Position numbers and translations under genes: made by a program. Positions 2,714-12,749 of a DNA stretch of 24,000 nucleotides are shown piece by piece (position 1 is the first letter of the stretch; every line of letters starts with the position of its first letter). Source of the DNA: an uncultured beta proteobacterium (GTDB taxonomy: Bacteria > Pseudomonadota > Gammaproteobacteria > Burkholderiales > Burkholderiaceae_F); NCBI GenBank assembly GCA_963724365.1, contig CAVRUR010000003.1, positions 120,528 to 144,527 on the forward strand, read 5' to 3'. The notes beneath the pieces are model-generated. The model was given only the letters and a program-made list of their open reading frames with translations, made no database searches and was not told the origin of the DNA.

Positions 2714-5408
2714 CTAGCGATACGAGTAGGTCGCGTTCAGGTAGAACGCGCGGCCGAGCGGGCTGGCTGTCTGCGGATTGAAGCCGGCCTGGAACGCGGT
2801 GCTCTGCAGCGAGAATGGCGGTTCTTCGTCGAACAGGTTGCGCACGCCCAGCGCCAGTTGCCAACCGGCGAAGCCGGTGTAGCGGCCCTGCAGATCCCAG
2901 CTCGAGCTCGAGCCCACATGTCGCGTGCCGGAATCCGCATCCCGCAACGGCTCGGTGTAGCCGGCGGAGTAGACCTGCGCGAGGGTCACGCCCCAGGGGC
3001 CGCGGTTCCAGTCCAGCGTCAGCGTGCTGCGCCAGCGCGGGATCGCGTTGCCATAGGTCGCGTCACCGAGCCGTGACACATAGGTGACGCCGTCGATCTG
3101 CGTTTCCCATTGCCGCACGTAGGTGCCCTGCAGGCCGATGCGCACCTGGCCCCAGTCCTGCGGCGGGGCCAGCCAACTGGCGAAGACATCGACGCCGGAC
3201 GTCTGCGTCGTACCAAGGTTGAGCGGGGAGATATCGATCGCGACGATCGGACCGGGCAGGTTCGGGTAGACCGGATCGACCGGGCCGCGCGTGATGCGGT
3301 CGGGAAAGCGCTGGTAGTAGCGCATCAGATTTTCTTCCGTCAGCGGCTCGATGATGCCCTTCTGCTCGATCGCCCAGTAGTCGACCCCAAGCGAAAGACC
3401 GCGCACCGGCTCCCAGACGACGCCGAGGTTCCACTGCGTCGAGGTCTCGGGCTGCAGGTTCGGGTTGCCGCCGGAAAAGACTTCGACGAAGGCCAGGCAA
3501 TCGTCAACCAGTCCGGTCACGGGGCATCGGACGGGATCCTCGAAGATGGTGATGCCAGCAGACGCCGTCGGCTCGCTCAGCGTGTACAGCGGCGGCGCGC
3601 GGAAACCCTCTCCCCACGAGCCGCGCAGCAGCAGGGTCTGCAGCGGCTGCCAGCGCAGCGCGACCTTCGGGTTGGTGGTCGAGCCGAAGTCGCTGTATTC
3701 GTCGAAGCGCAGCGCGAGTTGGGCATCGAGTCCGCGCACGATCGGCACCGCGAGTTCCGCATAGAGCGAATAGACGCTGCGGCTGCCGCTGATGGCCTTC
3801 AGCTGATCGCCGAGCGGCGAATTGCCGGCCAGCACTTCAGGATCCCAGTCGTAGGACAGTCGCTCGCGTCGCGCCTCGGCGCCGAGCGCAAGCGCCAGCG
3901 GGCCTGCCGGCAGTTGTGCGATCTCGCGCGACGCAAACGCGTTGACGAGCGATGTCGTTCCGTCCGCGGTCTGTGGCGTGCCGCTGTAGGCGGTCGAGGC
4001 GAGCAGCGCGGACCCTTCCGGTCCCGAGGGTCCCCACGGATTGATCAGTCCGGTCGCTATCGCCGGGACGATCCGGTTCGCGTAGACGAAGCTGCCGCTG
4101 TAGGCGTTCTCCTGCTGGTTCCAGTTGTAGACGGCAGCGACGCTGTAGTCCCAGCCGGCGGCCCGACCCTCGGCGCCCAGCACATAGCGCTGCGTGTCGC
4201 TTGTGGTCGTATTTGTGCGCGCGCCGAGTTCGGTGGCCCGGAACGAGATCAACAGGCTGCCCGCGAGGCCGTTGGCTGCGGCGAAGTCGGTCGGGTAGTA
4301 CGGGCCGCCGGCCGGATAGCGCAACTGGCCGAACGAGGTCACCGGAGGGATCGCATTGGGCGCGATGGCAGACTCGAAGCCGATTGCGGCCGAGCAGCGC
4401 CTCGGCAAACAGGTCGAGGTCTGCGTTCAGTCGCCAGGTTCCGCGCACCAGCGCACTGGTGCGCTCGACCTCGGGCAGCAGGTCGATCGCCGGCGGCGTA
4501 GTCGTAGCCGCAGGCGAGATCGTTGTCGGGTGGGAATCGGATCGGAATTGCCGTCGGCGGCAGGCATCCGGCGGTCGCACGTCGGATTCAGGATGCGCCC
4601 GCGCGTGCGATCGAAGATGTTGGACGGGAAGGTGAACGGAGTGAGGATGTCGATGCCCTGGTCGGGCCGGTACGCGGTGCGCGCGAAGTCGCGATCGATC
4701 GCCCGCAGGGCCTGCTGCTTCTGGTAGGCCAGCGACGCGAAGACGTTGTAGCCGTCGCGCGTCGGATCGCCGTAGCCCGCCGTGATGTTCGACTTGCCCC
4801 TCGTTGCCGCCGCCGTGCTGGGTGGCAGTGAAGCCGCCGGCGACTTCGACGCCCTGGTAGTCCTTGCGCAGGATGAAGTTGATGACGCCGGCGATCGCGT
4901 CGGTGCCGTAGATGGCCGAGGCGCCATCCTTCAGCACTTCGACGCGCTCGATCGCCGCGAACGGGATCGAATTCAGGTCGACCGGACGCGCCGTCGAACG
5001 CGTAGTTGCCGAGACGCCGACCGTTGAGCAGCACGAGCGTCGATCCGCCGCCGAGACCGCGCAGGTTGGCGGACGACAATCCCGGGTTACCAAGCCGTTG
5101 CCGATCGTCTGCGAGATATTGAACGGATTGACGTTGGCCGGCACGCGCTCGAGCAGCTGTTCGACCGTGGTGACGCCGCTCCTCTCGATGTCCTCGCGCG
5201 TGAGCACCTGCACCGGCAGCGCCGACTCGACGTCGGTCTGCCGGATGTGCGAGCCGGTGACGACGACGCGCTCGAACGTCGTGGTCGGCGCCGCCTGCCC
5301 CTGCTCTTGCGCCTGCGCGGCGGCGGTCAGCATGAGCAGCGCCGCAAACGGGAACACGACTGCACCGCAGTCGCAAAAACGCCCACGCCACCGCACGAGC
5401 TGGAACAA
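2714..5408 (-). pseudogene. TonB-dependent outer-membrane receptor, at least 6 frameshifts as assembled
   Basis: The N-terminus in ORF 3837..5408 has a signal peptide ending AQA, then FERVVVTGSHI and plug-domain sequence. The plug continues in ORF 4588..5478 ([30 protein letters not shown]) and then back in the first frame ([37 protein letters not shown]). The barrel runs through ORF 4427..4927 and ORF 2714..4408. It ends with a typical C-terminal strand (GRAFYLNATYSYR). There is no N-terminal signalling (STN) extension. Confidence 0.85.
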
Positions 5409-5628: not shown

Positions 5629-6183
5629 ATGAGCGACGTCACCGTCTTATTGCACCGCATCGCCGAGAACGACCGCGAGGCTCTCGACGCACTCTTTGAG
5701 TTGCTGTACGCCGACATCCACCGCATGGCGCGCGCACGGCTCGCCGAAAACGGCCCCTTGACGATGCTCGACACGACTTCGCTGGCGCACGAGGCCTACC
5801 TGCGGCTACACGGCGCCGGCCGCATCGACCTCGACTGCCGGGGCCGATTCATGGCCTACGTCTCGCAGGTCTTGCGCTCAGTCATCGTCGACTTCGCCCG
5901 CAAGCGCAACGCCGAGCGCCGCGGCGGCGGCCATGCAAACCTGACGCTCAACACCGAGATCGCCGGCTCGATCGGTAACCAGGACGAAGACATCATCCGC
6001 ATCAACGACGCCCTGGACGAGCTCGACAAGGTCGACCCGCGGCTGCGCAAGGTGGTCGAGATGCGCTATTTCGCCGGCCTGAGCGAGAAAGAGATCGCCG
6101 AAGCGCTCGACTTGAACGAACGCACCGTGCGGCGCGACTGGGAGCGCGCCCGGCTGCTGCTGTCGGTTTCGCTGAAACGCTGA
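5629..6183 (+). CDS. ECF sigma-70 family factor, PF07638 / TIGR02999-like (the ECF43-type group that pairs with Ser/Thr kinases)
   Basis: In-frame part of ORF 4912..6183. MSDVTVLLHRIAENDREALDALFELLYADIHRMARARLAENGPLTMLDTTSLAHEAYLRL matches the characteristic N-terminus of this family (M.DIT.LL....GD..A...L...VY.ELR..A...L......TL..TALV.EAYLRL). The C-terminal region 4 reads VVEMRYFAGLSEKEIAEALDLNERTVRRDWERARLLL. RBS GAGGG lies 5 nt upstream of the ATG at 5629. No anti-sigma gene is adjacent. Confidence 0.9.
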   Translation: MSDVTVLLHRIAENDREALDALFELLYADIHRMARARLAENGPLTMLDTTSLAHEAYLRLHGAGRIDLDCRGRFMAYVSQVLRSVIVDFARKRNAERRGGGHANLTLNTEIAGSIGNQDEDIIRINDALDELDKVDPRLRKVVEMRYFAGLSEKEIAEALDLNERTVRRDWERARLLLSVSLKR

Positions 6184-6190
6184 CACCTAC

Positions 6191-6217
6191 TGTCCGGTTT
6201 TCCAACAGAAATACGTC
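6191..6217 (+). promoter_or_regulatory. candidate ECF-type promoter P1 (TGTCCGGTTT-N13-CGTC) in the sigma-kinase intergenic gap
   Basis: TGTCCGGTTT at 6191-6200, a 13-nt spacer, then CGTC at 6214-6217. This is 8 nt after the sigma stop and about 32 nt before the kinase ATG. The same 10-mer, spacing and CGTC recur at 9260 and 9523. Confidence 0.6.
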
Positions 6218-6248: not shown

Positions 6249-9215
6249 ATGATCACAAGTCGCGCACTGACCGCACAGGACTGGCACCGGCTTAATGATT
6301 TGCTGGCGGCGGCGCTCGAGCTTGAAGCCTCGAAGCGCGCGAGCTGGCTGGCCGCGCTGCCGGAGTCGGCGAGCGACCTGAGACCGCTGCTGGCCGAGCT
6401 GCTGACGAGTGTCGGTGCGACCGGTTTCGACGATACCAGGCAGACCCTGCAACCGGTTGTGCAGCTGGCCTCAGCTGCGATTTCTGCGATGCGTCGGGAG
6501 CAGGCCGGCGACCGCATCGGCCCGTGGCAGCTGGAGCGGCTGCTGGCTGAGGGTGGCATGGGGGCGGTGTGGGTGGCGCAGCGTGCCGACGGCGTGATGC
6601 AGCGGCGCGCGGCGCTCAAGCTGCCGCGCGCCGAGTGGGTCGATCATGGGTTAAGCCAGCGCCTGGCGCGCGAGCGCGCGATCCTCGCGCGCCTGCAGCA
6701 TCCGCATATCGCGGTGCTGTTCGATGCCGGGCTGGCCGATGGCGGCCGGCCGTACCTGGCGCTCGAGTACGTCGATGGCGTGCCGATCGATGCGTACTGC
6801 CAGGGCCGTGAGCTCAAGGACGTGCTGCGGCTGATGGTGCAGGTCGTGCGCGCCGTGGCCTACGCGCATGGCCAGCTCGTGATCCACCGCGATCTCAAAC
6901 CCGCCAACGTACTGGTGATGGCCGACGGTTCTCCGAAGCTGCTCGACTTCGGCATCTCCAAGCTGATCGAGGGTGACACCACGACCGCGGAGGCCACAGC
7001 GTTGACACGGCTGGCGGGACGTCCGATGACGCTCGCCTACGCCGCGCCCGAGCAGGTGCTGGCGCTGCCGATCACGGTGTCGGCGGATGTCTATGCGCTG
7101 GGGGTGATGCTGGCCGAGCTGCTCGCCGGTGCGCGGCTGTACCGATCGCAGGAGCCGCGTGCGCTGGAAGCCGAGATCCTCACCGGCGATCTGCGCGTGC
7201 CGAGCGAGATCGCCAGCGACAAGGTGCGTGCCCGCGCGCTCAAGGGCGATCTGGATGCGATCGTGGCCACGGCGCTCAAGCGCCAGCCGCACGAGCGCTA
7301 CGACAGTGCCGCCGCACTGGCCGACGATCTGGAGCGCTACCTCGACGGCGAGCCGGTGCGCGCCCGCCCCGACAGCCGCGCCTATCGGCTGAAGAAGTTC
7401 ATCGCCCGCAACACGCTGGCGGTGGGTGCGGCCAGCGCCATCGTGCTGGCGCTGGGCATCGGCCTGGGGCTCGCGCTGTGGCAGGGCAATGAAGCGCGCA
7501 CTCAGGCGCAGCGCGCCACCGCGCTCAACACCTTCGTGCTGGGCCTGATCCGCACCGCCGACCCCAACGCATCGGTTCAGACCAAGGCCGCCGACGTGGC
7601 CATGCTGCACTCCATCGAAGACCGCATCGACCACGACTTCAAGGGCTCGCCCGACCAGCTGCTGCAACTCAGAGTGACGGTCGGTGAAGCCTACAAAAAC
7701 CGTGGTGAGATGGTCGCGGCGCAGCGCGTCTTCCAGCGAGCGGTCGACGATGCAAGTTCCTACCTGCGCGCAGATGACCTGCGCCTGCTGACCGCGCAGG
7801 TTCGCGCAGCCGACGAGCGACTTATCGTCTCGACCGCGGCGGCCGGGCAGCTTGATCGTGCCATCGAGATCTTGCGCCCAAAGAGTCGCGACAACCTCGA
7901 GGCAGCCGAACTCCTGCTGGATGCGCTGCTGATCCGAAGCACACTGGTGAACGAATACGGCGTGCCAGCTTACGTCACACCGGAAGAGAACACCCGGACT
8001 GTCGACGAAATGGAACGCCTGGCGCTCGACCACTTTGGCCCGGGCAGCCGTCAGCATCTGCGTGCGGTCGGCGCAAAGTCAGGCCTGGTCAACCTGCGAA
8101 GCGGCCCCGAAGCCGCCTATCCGATCCTGGCTACGGCGATGGAGCAGGCGCTCTTGCGCAACGATGGGGTGATCGACAGCGTGGACTTTCTCAACGCCAG
8201 CGCCGTCCGGGCCGTCCTTGACTGCGCCAACGGCAAAGTCCCCCAAGGGCTCGACACGCTGTGGAGGCTCAACTCGGCGGTGCGCACGTCCCACGGCCCG
8301 ACCAGTTACCTGCTCGAAGCGATCCTGCAGGGCATCGCCGACTGTCTCGCCGCGGTCGACGACAAGACGGCGTTTGGCTGGGTGCAGGACGCCTACGACA
8401 TCGCGGCCGCCCGCGAGCGGCCGCCCTCGACCAACCTGCTGCATCGTGCAATTGCGGCGTGGGACTGGTCGACGGGCGCACGGGACGTCGAGGCCGCCGA
8501 ACGCTACTACCAGAAGGCGATCGAGAACGTACAGGCATTCCCCGAAGAGGCAATCCGCGACCGCCTGACGGCCGGCCTGCGCCTCGGTCGCGTTTGCCAG
8601 CTGGCGCAGCGCGGTGACGCGGCGGATGCCGCACGCGTAGCCGAGCCGCTGATCGCAGGCTTCAACGCCGACTACGCGAGGATCAACCGGCTGACGCCGA
8701 ATCAGGGAGCGATCTGGATCTGTTACAGCGACGCGCTGCGCCAGCTCGGCCGCTACGACGAGGCGATCAAGGCCGCGCAGACCTTTGCGGAACGGTGTCG
8801 CGCGATCCTGCGCTTTGCGCCGGGTGCACGCTGCGAGCACCGCGCGCTTTCGGCCAAGGCGGTTGTCCAGCTCGACGCGGGCCGGCTCGCGGAGGCGCGC
8901 GCGACGCTGGACGAGCGCATGAAGCTCGCTCCGAAGACGGAGGGCGATCCGCGCTTCCCTCTCGCCTTTGCACGCGTGATGATCGCGACCGGACGCGGCG
9001 CCGAAGCGATCGATGTGACGCGCGACAACTACGGCGGCTGGCTGTCGACGCAGCCAGCGAGTCCCTATACCGCCGAAGCGCTGTACTGGTTCGGCCGGGC
9101 CTACCAGGCCGCCGGCGACAAGCGCGGCGACTGGATGGTCCCGCAGGCCCGACGGGCCCTGGTGAAGTCGCCGGTCTCGTATCACAAGACACTGGCCGCC
9201 GGCATGGCGTTCTGA
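6249..9215 (+). CDS. membrane Hanks-type Ser/Thr protein kinase with a large extracytoplasmic helical (TPR-like) domain
   Basis: Intact 988-aa ORF. Kinase motifs are the Gly loop EGGMGAVW (aa 101-108), AALK (K124), HRDLKPAN (213-220), DFG (233-235) and APE (266-268). A single TM helix LAVGAASAIVLALGIGLGLALW spans about aa 390-411. About 575 aa of Ala/Leu/Arg-rich helical repeat sequence follows. The N-terminal ~90 aa (W.RLNDLL..AL.L....R..WL) is typical of kinases encoded next to PF07638 sigma factors. Confidence 0.9.
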   Translation: MITSRALTAQDWHRLNDLLAAALELEASKRASWLAALPESASDLRPLLAELLTSVGATGFDDTRQTLQPVVQLASAAISAMRREQAGDRIGPWQLERLLAEGGMGAVWVAQRADGVMQRRAALKLPRAEWVDHGLSQRLARERAILARLQHPHIAVLFDAGLADGGRPYLALEYVDGVPIDAYCQGRELKDVLRLMVQVVRAVAYAHGQLVIHRDLKPANVLVMADGSPKLLDFGISKLIEGDTTTAEATALTRLAGRPMTLAYAAPEQVLALPITVSADVYALGVMLAELLAGARLYRSQEPRALEAEILTGDLRVPSEIASDKVRARALKGDLDAIVATALKRQPHERYDSAAALADDLERYLDGEPVRARPDSRAYRLKKFIARNTLAVGAASAIVLALGIGLGLALWQGNEARTQAQRATALNTFVLGLIRTADPNASVQTKAADVAMLHSIEDRIDHDFKGSPDQLLQLRVTVGEAYKNRGEMVAAQRVFQRAVDDASSYLRADDLRLLTAQVRAADERLIVSTAAAGQLDRAIEILRPKSRDNLEAAELLLDALLIRSTLVNEYGVPAYVTPEENTRTVDEMERLALDHFGPGSRQHLRAVGAKSGLVNLRSGPEAAYPILATAMEQALLRNDGVIDSVDFLNASAVRAVLDCANGKVPQGLDTLWRLNSAVRTSHGPTSYLLEAILQGIADCLAAVDDKTAFGWVQDAYDIAAARERPPSTNLLHRAIAAWDWSTGARDVEAAERYYQKAIENVQAFPEEAIRDRLTAGLRLGRVCQLAQRGDAADAARVAEPLIAGFNADYARINRLTPNQGAIWICYSDALRQLGRYDEAIKAAQTFAERCRAILRFAPGARCEHRALSAKAVVQLDAGRLAEARATLDERMKLAPKTEGDPRFPLAFARVMIATGRGAEAIDVTRDNYGGWLSTQPASPYTAEALYWFGRAYQAAGDKRGDWMVPQARRALVKSPVSYHKTLAAGMAF

Positions 9216-9221
9216 CCGGTG

Positions 9222-9239
9222 GCCGGGCGAGAGCCCGGC
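9222..9239 (+). terminator. GC-rich hairpin just after the kinase stop (weak terminator or attenuator candidate)
   Basis: GCCGGGC-gaga-GCCCGGC forms a perfect 7-bp stem with a 4-nt loop. It is followed only by a poor U-tract (gcaccgaattct). Confidence 0.3.
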
Positions 9240-9259
9240 GCACCGAATTCTCCGGCCCA

Positions 9260-9286
9260 TGTCCGGTTTGGCGTCCTCCTTGCGTC
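9260..9286 (+). promoter_or_regulatory. candidate ECF-type promoter P2 (TGTCCGGTTT-N13-CGTC) for small ORF A
   Basis: TGTCCGGTTT at 9260-9269, a 13-nt spacer, then CGTC at 9283-9286. This lies about 50 nt upstream of the ATG at 9337. Confidence 0.6.
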
Positions 9287-9336
9287 CCTACCAGCAAGAG
9301 CCCACTACGCGGGCTTCAACCGAACGGAGGGACACC

Positions 9337-9504
9337 ATGAAGAACTCGATGATCAAGCAAGTGGCCGGATTGGCCGCCGCGGCGTGCACGACGCTGGTGA
9401 TCTTCTCGGCCGTCGCCGCCCTGGCCGACTCAGACCGCGCCGCGTTGCACCAGGCCAAAGTCGCACCGGCCACGGTCGTGGCGACTGCGTCCGTGGTCCG
9501 CTAG
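9337..9504 (+). CDS. small hypothetical protein A (55 aa), signal-peptide or TM-anchor-like
   Basis: Internal ATG of ORF 9259..9504, with RBS GGAGGG 5 nt upstream. Sequence: [55 protein letters not shown]. It has a basic N-region, a ~20-aa hydrophobic core, an ALA|D site like a signal peptidase I site, and a 25-aa tail. It is paralogous to ORF B immediately downstream. Confidence 0.6.
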
Positions 9505-9522
9505 GCAGAAGTTCCAGGCGAA

Positions 9523-9549
9523 TGTCCGGTTTCGCTTCCGAACCACGTC
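9523..9549 (+). promoter_or_regulatory. candidate ECF-type promoter P3 (TGTCCGGTTT-N13-CGTC) for small ORF B
   Basis: TGTCCGGTTT at 9523-9532, a 13-nt spacer, then CGTC at 9546-9549. This lies about 50 nt upstream of the ATG at 9600. The sequence downstream of CGTC (CGTCCCTAC..ACAAGAGCCC...GGGCT...CGAAC.GGAG) aligns with that of P2. Confidence 0.6.
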
Positions 9550-9599
9550 CCTACATACAAGAGCCCCCCGTCGGGCTCGCACGAACAGGAGAAGACCTC

Positions 9600-9773
9600 A
9601 TGACGAACTCTTACCTCAAGCACGCAGTGGCCCTGGGCGCAGCCGTCACGACGACTCTGATTCTCTTCAGCGGCGTGGTTGCGCTGGCAGATGATGACAA
9701 GGCCGCGCTGGTCGCCGCCAAATCGGTGCGCGGCACGCAGGTCGTGCAGGCGACGTCGGCGGCGCAGCGCTAG
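9600..9773 (+). CDS. small hypothetical protein B (57 aa), paralog of A
   Basis: Internal ATG of ORF 9219..9773, with RBS AGGAG 8 nt upstream. Sequence: [57 protein letters not shown]. The architecture matches A, and identity by eye is roughly 40-45%. The shared core is TTL..FS.V.ALAD.D(R/K)AAL..AK. Confidence 0.6.
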
Positions 9774-9790
9774 TCCAACGTCGCTCGAAA

Positions 9791-9826
9791 GCAAAACGGC
9801 CGCGCGTGCGGCCGTTTTGCTTTTCT
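9791..9826. terminator. bidirectional rho-independent terminator between small ORF B (+) and gcvP (-)
   Basis: GCAAAACGGCCGC-gcgt-GCGGCCGTTTTGC forms a perfect 13-bp stem. TTTTCT follows on the plus strand. The stem supplies an A/T run for the minus strand. Confidence 0.8.
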
Positions 9827-9835
9827 GGTGCAGCG

Positions 9836-12749
<2,914 letters not shown>

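Follow-up and report, generated by a model that had tools for sequence, protein, structure and literature searches.

In a 24,000-nucleotide stretch of DNA from an uncultured beta proteobacterium of the Burkholderiaceae_F (GenBank assembly GCA_963724365.1, contig CAVRUR010000003.1, positions 120,528 to 144,527 of the forward strand; the whole stretch is hereafter the window), we analysed two short head-to-tail units at positions 9260-9773, downstream of the genes for an extracytoplasmic function (ECF) sigma factor and a Hanks Ser/Thr kinase. Each unit contains one small open reading frame (ORF). To judge from their conservation at the sequence level, ORF1 and ORF2 are genuine genes under selection and encode proteins of about 55 residues that belong to an undescribed family. 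We consider it very likely that these genes are translated and under purifying selection, that the C-terminal part of each product is exported to the periplasm, and that both genes have ECF-type promoters of their own and belong to a local sigma regulon. The small proteins are probably outputs of the sigma-phosphorylation system encoded next to them and possibly modulators of it.

Two tandem units encoding small proteins

The two units repeat with a period of 263 nt, which is longer than the 245-250 nt given in an earlier, sequence-only reading of this DNA, and their whole-length alignment has a mean column identity of 79 %. The layout is the same in both, with a TGTCCGGTTT-N13-CGTC element followed by a leader, a Shine-Dalgarno site and a small ORF. 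All elements of this duplicated arrangement, which that reading had described, were found in each unit. The features of the region are:

9260..9286, + strand: P2 element, exact match, assigned to ORF1
9287..9336, + strand: leader 1, with the conserved CCTACCAGCAAGAG, a small hairpin at 9298..9316 and the ribosome-binding site GGAGGG at 9326..9331
9337..9504, + strand: small ORF1 (type 1, t1), 55 residues, with an identical protein (P0024) in public assemblies
9523..9549, + strand: P3 element, exact match, assigned to ORF2, beginning 18 nt past the ORF1 stop codon
9550..9599, + strand: leader 2, with CCTACATACAAGAG, a hairpin at 9561..9578 and the ribosome-binding site AGGAG at 9587..9591
9600..9773, + strand: small ORF2 (type 2, t2), 57 residues, with 23 homologous clusters
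9787..9824, both strands: bidirectional intrinsic terminator hairpin with a 17-bp stem and A and T runs on its flanks

The proteins encoded by ORF1 and ORF2 are 50 % identical according to BLASTP (26/52 positions, E 8e-14), a higher value than the 40-45 % first estimated by eye, and the motifs TTL..FS.V.ALA and D(S/D)D(R/K)AAL..AK that had been read from the pair are correct as quoted. Database searches retrieved 23 clusters for ORF2, with 68-95 % identity and lengths of 55-58 residues; the one exception is P0023, a frameshifted call of 74 residues that is 97 % identical over 60 % of the ORF2 query. For ORF1, 8 clusters were retrieved, including one identical protein. The members of these clusters are annotated as 'hypothetical' or left unnamed and come from Burkholderiaceae or betaproteobacterial metagenome-assembled genomes. 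The expectation that genes this small are easily missed by gene callers does not hold here, as 31 database clusters of predicted proteins match the pair (for example NCBI PLE54_12475).

A profile search against 1.84 billion representative proteins extended the family to 53 clusters at E<1e-3, all without a name and almost all of them 47-76 residues long with the same layout. Conservation within the family reaches down to about 30-35 % identity with both length and layout preserved. In-frame orthologs occur in 13 related loci, and type 1 in particular in 7 distinct loci. The sequence-only reading had named a lack of in-frame homologs beside orthologous sigma/kinase loci as the observation that would speak against the genes; we found homologs in every related locus. 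Pairwise Nei-Gojobori estimates of the ratio of non-synonymous to synonymous substitution rates (dN/dS, at dS 0.2-0.9) range from 0.13 to 0.59 for type 1, from 0.07 to 0.49 for type 2 and from 0.38 to 0.50 for a third paralog type (t3) found in relatives. Together with the in-frame orthologs these values, mostly 0.1-0.5, bear out the earlier view that both small ORFs are real, selected genes. That view had also left the family unrecognised, and we likewise obtained no match for the small proteins or their units in Pfam or NCBIfam (both at E<=1), PDB sequences or Rfam. On present database evidence the family does not extend beyond uncultured Burkholderiaceae.

It could be argued that the repeats are duplicated regulatory or small RNA units and the ORFs accidents of a high G+C content, given that such DNA yields spurious ORFs (a 184-residue ORF spans 9219..9773 in another frame) and that each leader contains a hairpin, but we regard this explanation, to which we leave only a trace of probability, as effectively refuted already by dN/dS well under 1 in three paralog groups, by the protein-level conservation described above, by good ribosome-binding sites at both ORFs and by the fact that no family reached the Rfam threshold.

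Both leaders contain a common CCTACcAgCAAGAG followed by the short hairpin. The hairpin has a folding energy of -11 kcal/mol in leader 1 (z -0.95, which is weak support) and of -13.3 kcal/mol in leader 2 (z -2.2). Single-sequence folding predicts a hairpin in most leaders of the family, not in all (z from +0.4 to -2.8), and RNAalifold returned no consensus pairs among 20 leaders because the length of the hairpin differs between paralog types. We claim no conserved RNA element for the leaders.

At the 3' end of the second unit, direct folding of the region gives the hairpin at 9787..9824 an energy of -33.1 kcal/mol (z -4.77). This terminator is common to ORF2 and the convergent gcvP gene. Folding found no terminator-like hairpin between ORF1 and P3; transcripts from P2 should therefore continue into ORF2, which would then be read from two promoters.

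Promoter element and the adjacent sigma factor and kinase

The sequence-only reading had reported the exact element with its N13 spacing in both units. We confirmed this and found a third exact copy (P1) in the spacer between the sigma factor and kinase genes, which gives three exact copies of TGTCCGGTTT-N13-CGTC in the 24-kb window (6191..6217, 9260..9286 and 9523..9549). Three matches were reached in 0/100 dinucleotide shuffles. No further site with up to 3 mismatches occurs elsewhere in the 24 kb, and the scan of the window found no copy at the sigma gene or at the divergent gene for a TonB-dependent receptor. The genes and the site that surround the two units are:

5629..6183, + strand: ECF43-type sigma factor gene, 184 residues, PF07638 and TIGR02999
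6191..6217, + strand: P1 element, exact match, in the sigma-kinase spacer, 32 nt 5' of the kinase start codon
6249..9215, + strand: PknS-like Hanks Ser/Thr kinase, 988 residues, Pkinase E 4e-36
9836..10489, - strand: gcvP C-terminus, convergent to the small genes

By every sequence test available, the sigma/kinase pair is a bona fide ECF43-type module. The earlier placement of the small ORFs behind a PF07638-sigma/kinase pair thus stands, with confirmed matches for both proteins. The sigma factor matches PF07638 with E 1.5e-40 and 139.5 bits (cut-off 21.1) and TIGR02999 with E 2.5e-48 and 164.4 bits (cut-off 126.15). Sigma factors of the ECF43 group carry QTTA or STTA in place of the acidic DAED motif in region 2.2, with phosphorylation taking place on the second Thr (PMC8999054, PMC13147305). 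In the window the corresponding region reads LDTTSLAHEAY, where the DAED motif is absent and T50 aligns with the phospho-acceptor T51 of EcfK. One acidic residue (D48) is left in region 2.2, as EcfK has one in QATE.

The kinase gene follows after a spacer of 65 nt. Its product consists of an N-terminal extension of about 90 residues, a kinase domain (94-358) with intact HRDLKPAN, DFG and APE motifs, a transmembrane segment (~386-415) and a periplasmic domain of about 575 residues that matches TPR_12 with 29 bits, under the Pfam cut-off of 30.1. PknS of Xanthomonas citri is organised in a comparable way: an extension of 83 residues precedes the Hanks domain, and a transmembrane segment leads on to three periplasmic tetratricopeptide repeats (TPRs) (PMC13147305). 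There is no anti-sigma factor gene at the module. By homology to EcfK/PknS and EcfP/PknT, the sigma factor would be switched on by the kinase phosphorylating T50.

One part of the kinase stands out in a comparison of seven paralogs and orthologs. Residues ~413-440 (window ~7485..7570), which read WQGNEAR(Q/T)QAQRATALNTFVLGLIRTADPN, are almost invariant, and the near-invariant stretch comprises the transmembrane segment and the first ~25 periplasmic residues (WQGNEARxQAQRATALNTFVLGLIRTADPN). The remaining sensor domain is 36-60 % identical among the same paralogs.

The organisation of the locus is shared by relatives. All longer contigs have the order TonB receptor (- strand), sigma factor, one or more kinases, the 55-residue protein, the 57-residue protein and gcvPHT (- strand). 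The third paralog, t3, is a protein of 56 residues (MTKSHLPQ...) whose gene has its own promoter copy and lies between two tandem kinase genes in seven loci (L001, L009, L010, L013, L037, L055 and L057). In several relatives it immediately precedes the second kinase gene, and no terminator could be recognised between the two. A small gene is found directly 3' of a kinase homolog in 19/22 distinct motif-positive loci, the exceptions being L051, L053 and L060.

P1 is kept in the sigma-kinase spacer of L009, L010, L012 and L013 and has one mismatch in L002. In L009, which represents a near-identical strain, there are four copies, before kinase A, t3, t1 and t2. All fetched loci keep the -35 block and CGTCC(C/T)TAC while the 13-nt spacer between them varies, and this conservation, a -35/-10 footprint, is seen in all orthologous small-gene units. 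Because the element before the kinase gene matches those of the small genes, P1, P2 and P3 would most simply be read as the regulon that the neighbouring ECF43-type sigma factor controls locally.

Many t1 and t3 promoters of relatives also show a GTGAAnnTTCAC palindrome about 5 nt 5' of the -35 block (L002 7647..7658, L013 7650..7661, L024 699..710, L032 1696..1707). Its counterpart in the window, at 9245..9257, is degenerate (CCGAATTCTCCGG). This palindrome may be a candidate binding site for a further regulator.

Anatomy and possible action of the small proteins

We examined the anatomy of the family on 40 members left after redundancy was removed at 70 % identity, with some counts made on 38. 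The proteins have a short basic N-terminus, an uncharged segment of 22 residues and a C-terminal part of 25-27 residues. Mean column entropy is lowest in the hydrophobic segment (residues 9-30, 1.25 bits) and in residues 31-41 (1.28 bits), and reaches 2.5 bits in residues 2-8 and 2.56 bits in the tail (the last 15 residues). The most conserved parts are therefore the hydrophobic segment and the LADxD(K/R)AAL..AK that comes after it, with A11, A14, A15, T18, T19, L22, F23, V26, L29, A30, D31, D33, L37 and A40 near-invariant. The family signature can be written as AA..TT...FS.V..LADxD(K/R)AAL plus a C-terminal Arg.

Several features describe the segment that enters the membrane. The uncharged stretch is 22 residues long in 30/38 members, and the conservation of residues 9-30 falls on one helical face (periodicity peak at 94-100 degrees, permutation p ~0.004). 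AlphaFold2, run on an alignment of close homologs, models ORF2 as a single helix over residues 2-56 that passes through the putative cleavage site, with a predicted local distance difference test score (pLDDT) of 85-97 at residues 1-30. Before D31, S, G or A occupies position -3 in 36/38 members and A occupies position -1 in 37/38; position +1 is D in 34/38.

The C-terminal residue is Arg in 31/40 members despite about 10 highly variable preceding residues, and could be a docking or processing determinant. The terminal Arg codons lie at 9499..9501 in ORF1 and at 9768..9770 in ORF2.

The C-terminus is exported whether the hydrophobic segment stays as an anchor or is cleaved off. Between the two, the evidence leans modestly towards a retained signal-anchored helix rather than cleavage at ALA|D, because the hydrophobic segment is unusually conserved and face-periodic. 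For a signal peptide the mature part is expected to be more constrained than the export signal, and the family has the reverse, with 1.25 bits in the segment versus 2.56 bits in the tail.

Other protein classes were considered and rejected. A lipoprotein was rejected because the paralogs have V or T where ORF1 has Cys (residue 17), a Tat substrate because a twin-arginine motif is absent, and a pilin or Flp-like protein because Pfam gave no match. The genes are located at the 3' end of the locus, ahead of the terminator, and so do not qualify as leader peptides or upstream ORFs. The cytoplasmic part of just ~8 residues argues against an anti-sigma factor, and the lack of conservation of the Ser and Thr residues at the N-terminus against a kinase substrate.

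The function that we prefer, tentatively and by analogy with MgrB, is that the small proteins are sigma-dependent single-pass membrane proteins of N-in/C-out topology that modulate the kinase at the membrane. A signal perceived by the periplasmic domain of the kinase would lead to phosphorylation of the sigma factor, and the active sigma factor would cause more kinase to be transcribed, in a positive loop, along with both small proteins. Both would stay in the inner membrane, each as a single-pass helix (N-in/C-out). There the conserved face of the helix, together with the acidic LADxD(K/R)AAL..AK next to the membrane, would contact the equally conserved transmembrane and juxtamembrane stretch of the kinase. 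Such a contact would tune kinase activity, inhibition and activation being alike conceivable, and would amount to an MgrB/PhoQ-like feedback in a sigma-phosphorylation pathway.

Several observations weigh against this proposal. Promoter function and sigma dependence are read from the position and conservation of the motif only. At L060, a t3-like and a t2-like gene form a pair beside gcvP (9645..10174), and neither a sigma nor a kinase gene lies within 10 kb of it; the promoter of the upstream, t3-like gene has an intact TGTCCGGTTT-N13-CGTC, and the second gene has the -35 block with CTTT for CGTC. At about a dozen distinct loci, the motif-negative members of the family (group B) have another upstream pattern, also conserved, and no kinase gene is adjacent to them or in the vicinity. 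Their neighbours are unrelated (HypE/HoxX/V-ATPase, PPK2, MliC/PBP), which shows that the family does not require a kinase as its neighbour. Finally, the residues at -3 and -1 before D31 form a textbook site for signal peptidase I, which makes cleavage of the proteins a possibility. The sequence-only reading had called the small genes the dedicated output of the sigma factor. The part of this claim that rests on private promoters is strengthened, since these match the element of the kinase gene and are conserved in relatives; the word 'dedicated' is weakened by L060 and group B.

The upstream pattern of group B reads GTGAATATTC ... GCAATG(T/C)TCCG ... N17-20 ... CGAT(N)TAATGC. It is found at L058 9899..9960 and also at L021, L023, L029, L034, L040 and L042, and may be a candidate promoter for another sigma factor.

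One alternative is that the small proteins are envelope or membrane stress effectors whose target is the bilayer or a different membrane protein, with no feedback on the kinase. We consider this rather unlikely, though it is the strongest competitor of the kinase modulator. The pair kept at L060 away from any sigma or kinase gene would fit such effectors, as would the group B orphans with their diverse neighbourhoods and other upstream pattern, and with no other motif target in the 24-kb window the small genes may be the main output of the sigma factor. The linkage in the motif-positive loci points the other way. Kinase adjacency in 19 of the 22, the insertion of t3 directly 5' of the second kinase gene in several relatives and the conservation of the juxtamembrane segments of both partners are better accounted for by an action on the kinase.

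Alternatively, the products could be pro-peptides whose Sec signal is removed at ALA|D, the resulting peptides of 25-27 residues either binding the TPR-like sensor of the kinase in an autocrine manner or leaving the cell. This is unlikely in our estimate, somewhat more so than an effector role. The residues around the site (small at -3 and -1 in 36/38, D at +1 in 34/38) and the basic N-terminus are what cleavage calls for, and the tail keeps a constant length of 25-27 residues and its terminal Arg (31/40) in spite of its variable sequence. The sensor of the kinase has TPR-like matches and that of PknS three TPRs; moreover, it is in the tail that the three peptide types diverge, and in the sensor domain that the kinase paralogs do. 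Against this, no part of the protein is better conserved than the presumed signal peptide, which also has a conserved helical face. That is unusual for a targeting sequence that is discarded. The 22-residue uncharged stretch has transmembrane length, the AlphaFold2 helix is continuous over the site, and the TPR matches lie under the Pfam cut-off.

A more specific form of the pro-peptide scheme is a periplasmic peptide-receptor circuit. In such a circuit, sigma-induced and cleaved peptides of 25-27 residues with a free C-terminal Arg would dock in the TPR-like kinase sensor, and t1, t2 and t3 together with the kinase A and B sensors (36-60 % identical) would have diversified into specific pairs. 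We regard it as improbable. The pro-peptides of the RRNPP systems of Firmicutes (PhrA, PapR, NprX) are precursors of ~40-60 residues that have an N-terminal export signal and are encoded beside a TPR receptor; their paralogs have divergent C-terminal parts, and the receptors, being cytoplasmic, need re-import of a peptide of 5-10 residues. The small proteins resemble them in precursor size, in the export signal, in the neighbouring TPR(-like) protein and in the diverged tails of the paralogs. They differ in that the TPR-like domain is here periplasmic and fused to the kinase, and in that the conserved part is the export segment and not the C-terminus. If the circuit were real, it would represent RRNPP-like signalling built on sigma-factor phosphorylation in a Gram-negative bacterium, and would provide the first ligand of a PknS-type sensor.

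Returning to the kinase modulator, the closest parallel is MgrB in the PhoQ-PhoP system of E. coli and Salmonella (PMC2789325). MgrB is likewise a protein of ~50 residues with one N-in/C-out hydrophobic helix (a prediction in the case of the small proteins), is transcribed by the regulator of its own pathway (here suggested by the shared promoter element) and acts on a membrane sensor kinase (here proposed by analogy). The small proteins have no sequence similarity to MgrB, no Pfam match and no Cys after residue 30, hence none of the periplasmic cysteines of MgrB; on this sequence evidence they are not members of the MgrB family. In addition, their presumed partner is a Hanks Ser/Thr kinase that would phosphorylate a sigma factor and not a histidine kinase, and there are 2-3 paralogs here, each with its own promoter.

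A second E. coli protein, MzrA (EcfM), belongs to an ECF sigma (sigma E) regulon. As proposed for the small proteins, it is a single-pass inner-membrane modulator of a sensor kinase, in this case EnvZ (PMC2727453). Unlike them, it is 127 residues long with a folded periplasmic domain, connects two pathways without feedback on its own one, and has no homology to the family.

The pairs EcfK-PknS of Xanthomonas citri and EcfP-PknT of Vibrio parahaemolyticus (PMC13147305, PMC8999054) share with the module in the window the sigma family, the Thr at the phospho-site of region 2.2, the kinase with its N-terminal extension, Hanks domain, transmembrane segment and TPR-like periplasmic domain, and the absence of an anti-sigma factor gene. 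In the accounts of EcfK-PknS and EcfP-PknT (PMC13147305, PMC8999054), the outputs named are a type VI secretion system or polymyxin-resistance genes, with no mention of a small accessory protein. The module in the window differs in that its local targets are only the kinase gene and the small genes, the sigma gene having no motif. A regulon-encoded small membrane protein tied to a sensor kinase would be of a known kind, and new in its setting in a sigma-phosphorylation pathway.

For ECF43 sigma/Hanks kinase pathways, the stimulus of the sensor domain and the reset of the pathway are still to be explained. Tiny exported proteins linked by a promoter element and encoded beside the kinases are concrete candidates for modulators or ligands, and an unnamed family with a clear signature is added to the catalogue of small membrane proteins. 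The reality of the genes and their link to the promoter element appear solid, while the function is what we infer from sequence for a family seen only in uncultured Burkholderiaceae.

Recombination and assembly signs in the window

Two genes that flank the module are split over several frames in the window, namely the TonB-dependent receptor gene (2714..5408, - strand) and gcvP (9836..~12740, - strand). The receptor gene is uninterrupted in L002 and L009 as far as these loci extend, and gcvP is intact in L002, L003 and L005 and split in L009. The broken frames are probably indel errors of long-read metagenome assembly rather than pseudogenes.

Compared with L009, the kinase of the window looks like a hybrid of the two tandem kinase paralogs of that strain, with an N-terminus of the kinase A type. 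Its residues 91-988 are 98-100 % identical to kinase B of L009, whereas residues 1-90 are just 50 % identical to it (window 6249..9215 versus L009 3420..9880), and the segment 6466..7841 of the window aligns with both L009 kinases. A deletion between the tandem paralogs, or their collapse during assembly, could explain this pattern and would have removed the sensor domain of kinase A together with t3.

The window and L009 have the same ORF1 nucleotide sequence. At about position 9689, inside ORF2, the divergence from L009 and L001 rises from 0-4 to 10-22 differences per 100 nt and stays at this level through gcvP, which looks like a recombination breakpoint in the tail-coding part of ORF2.

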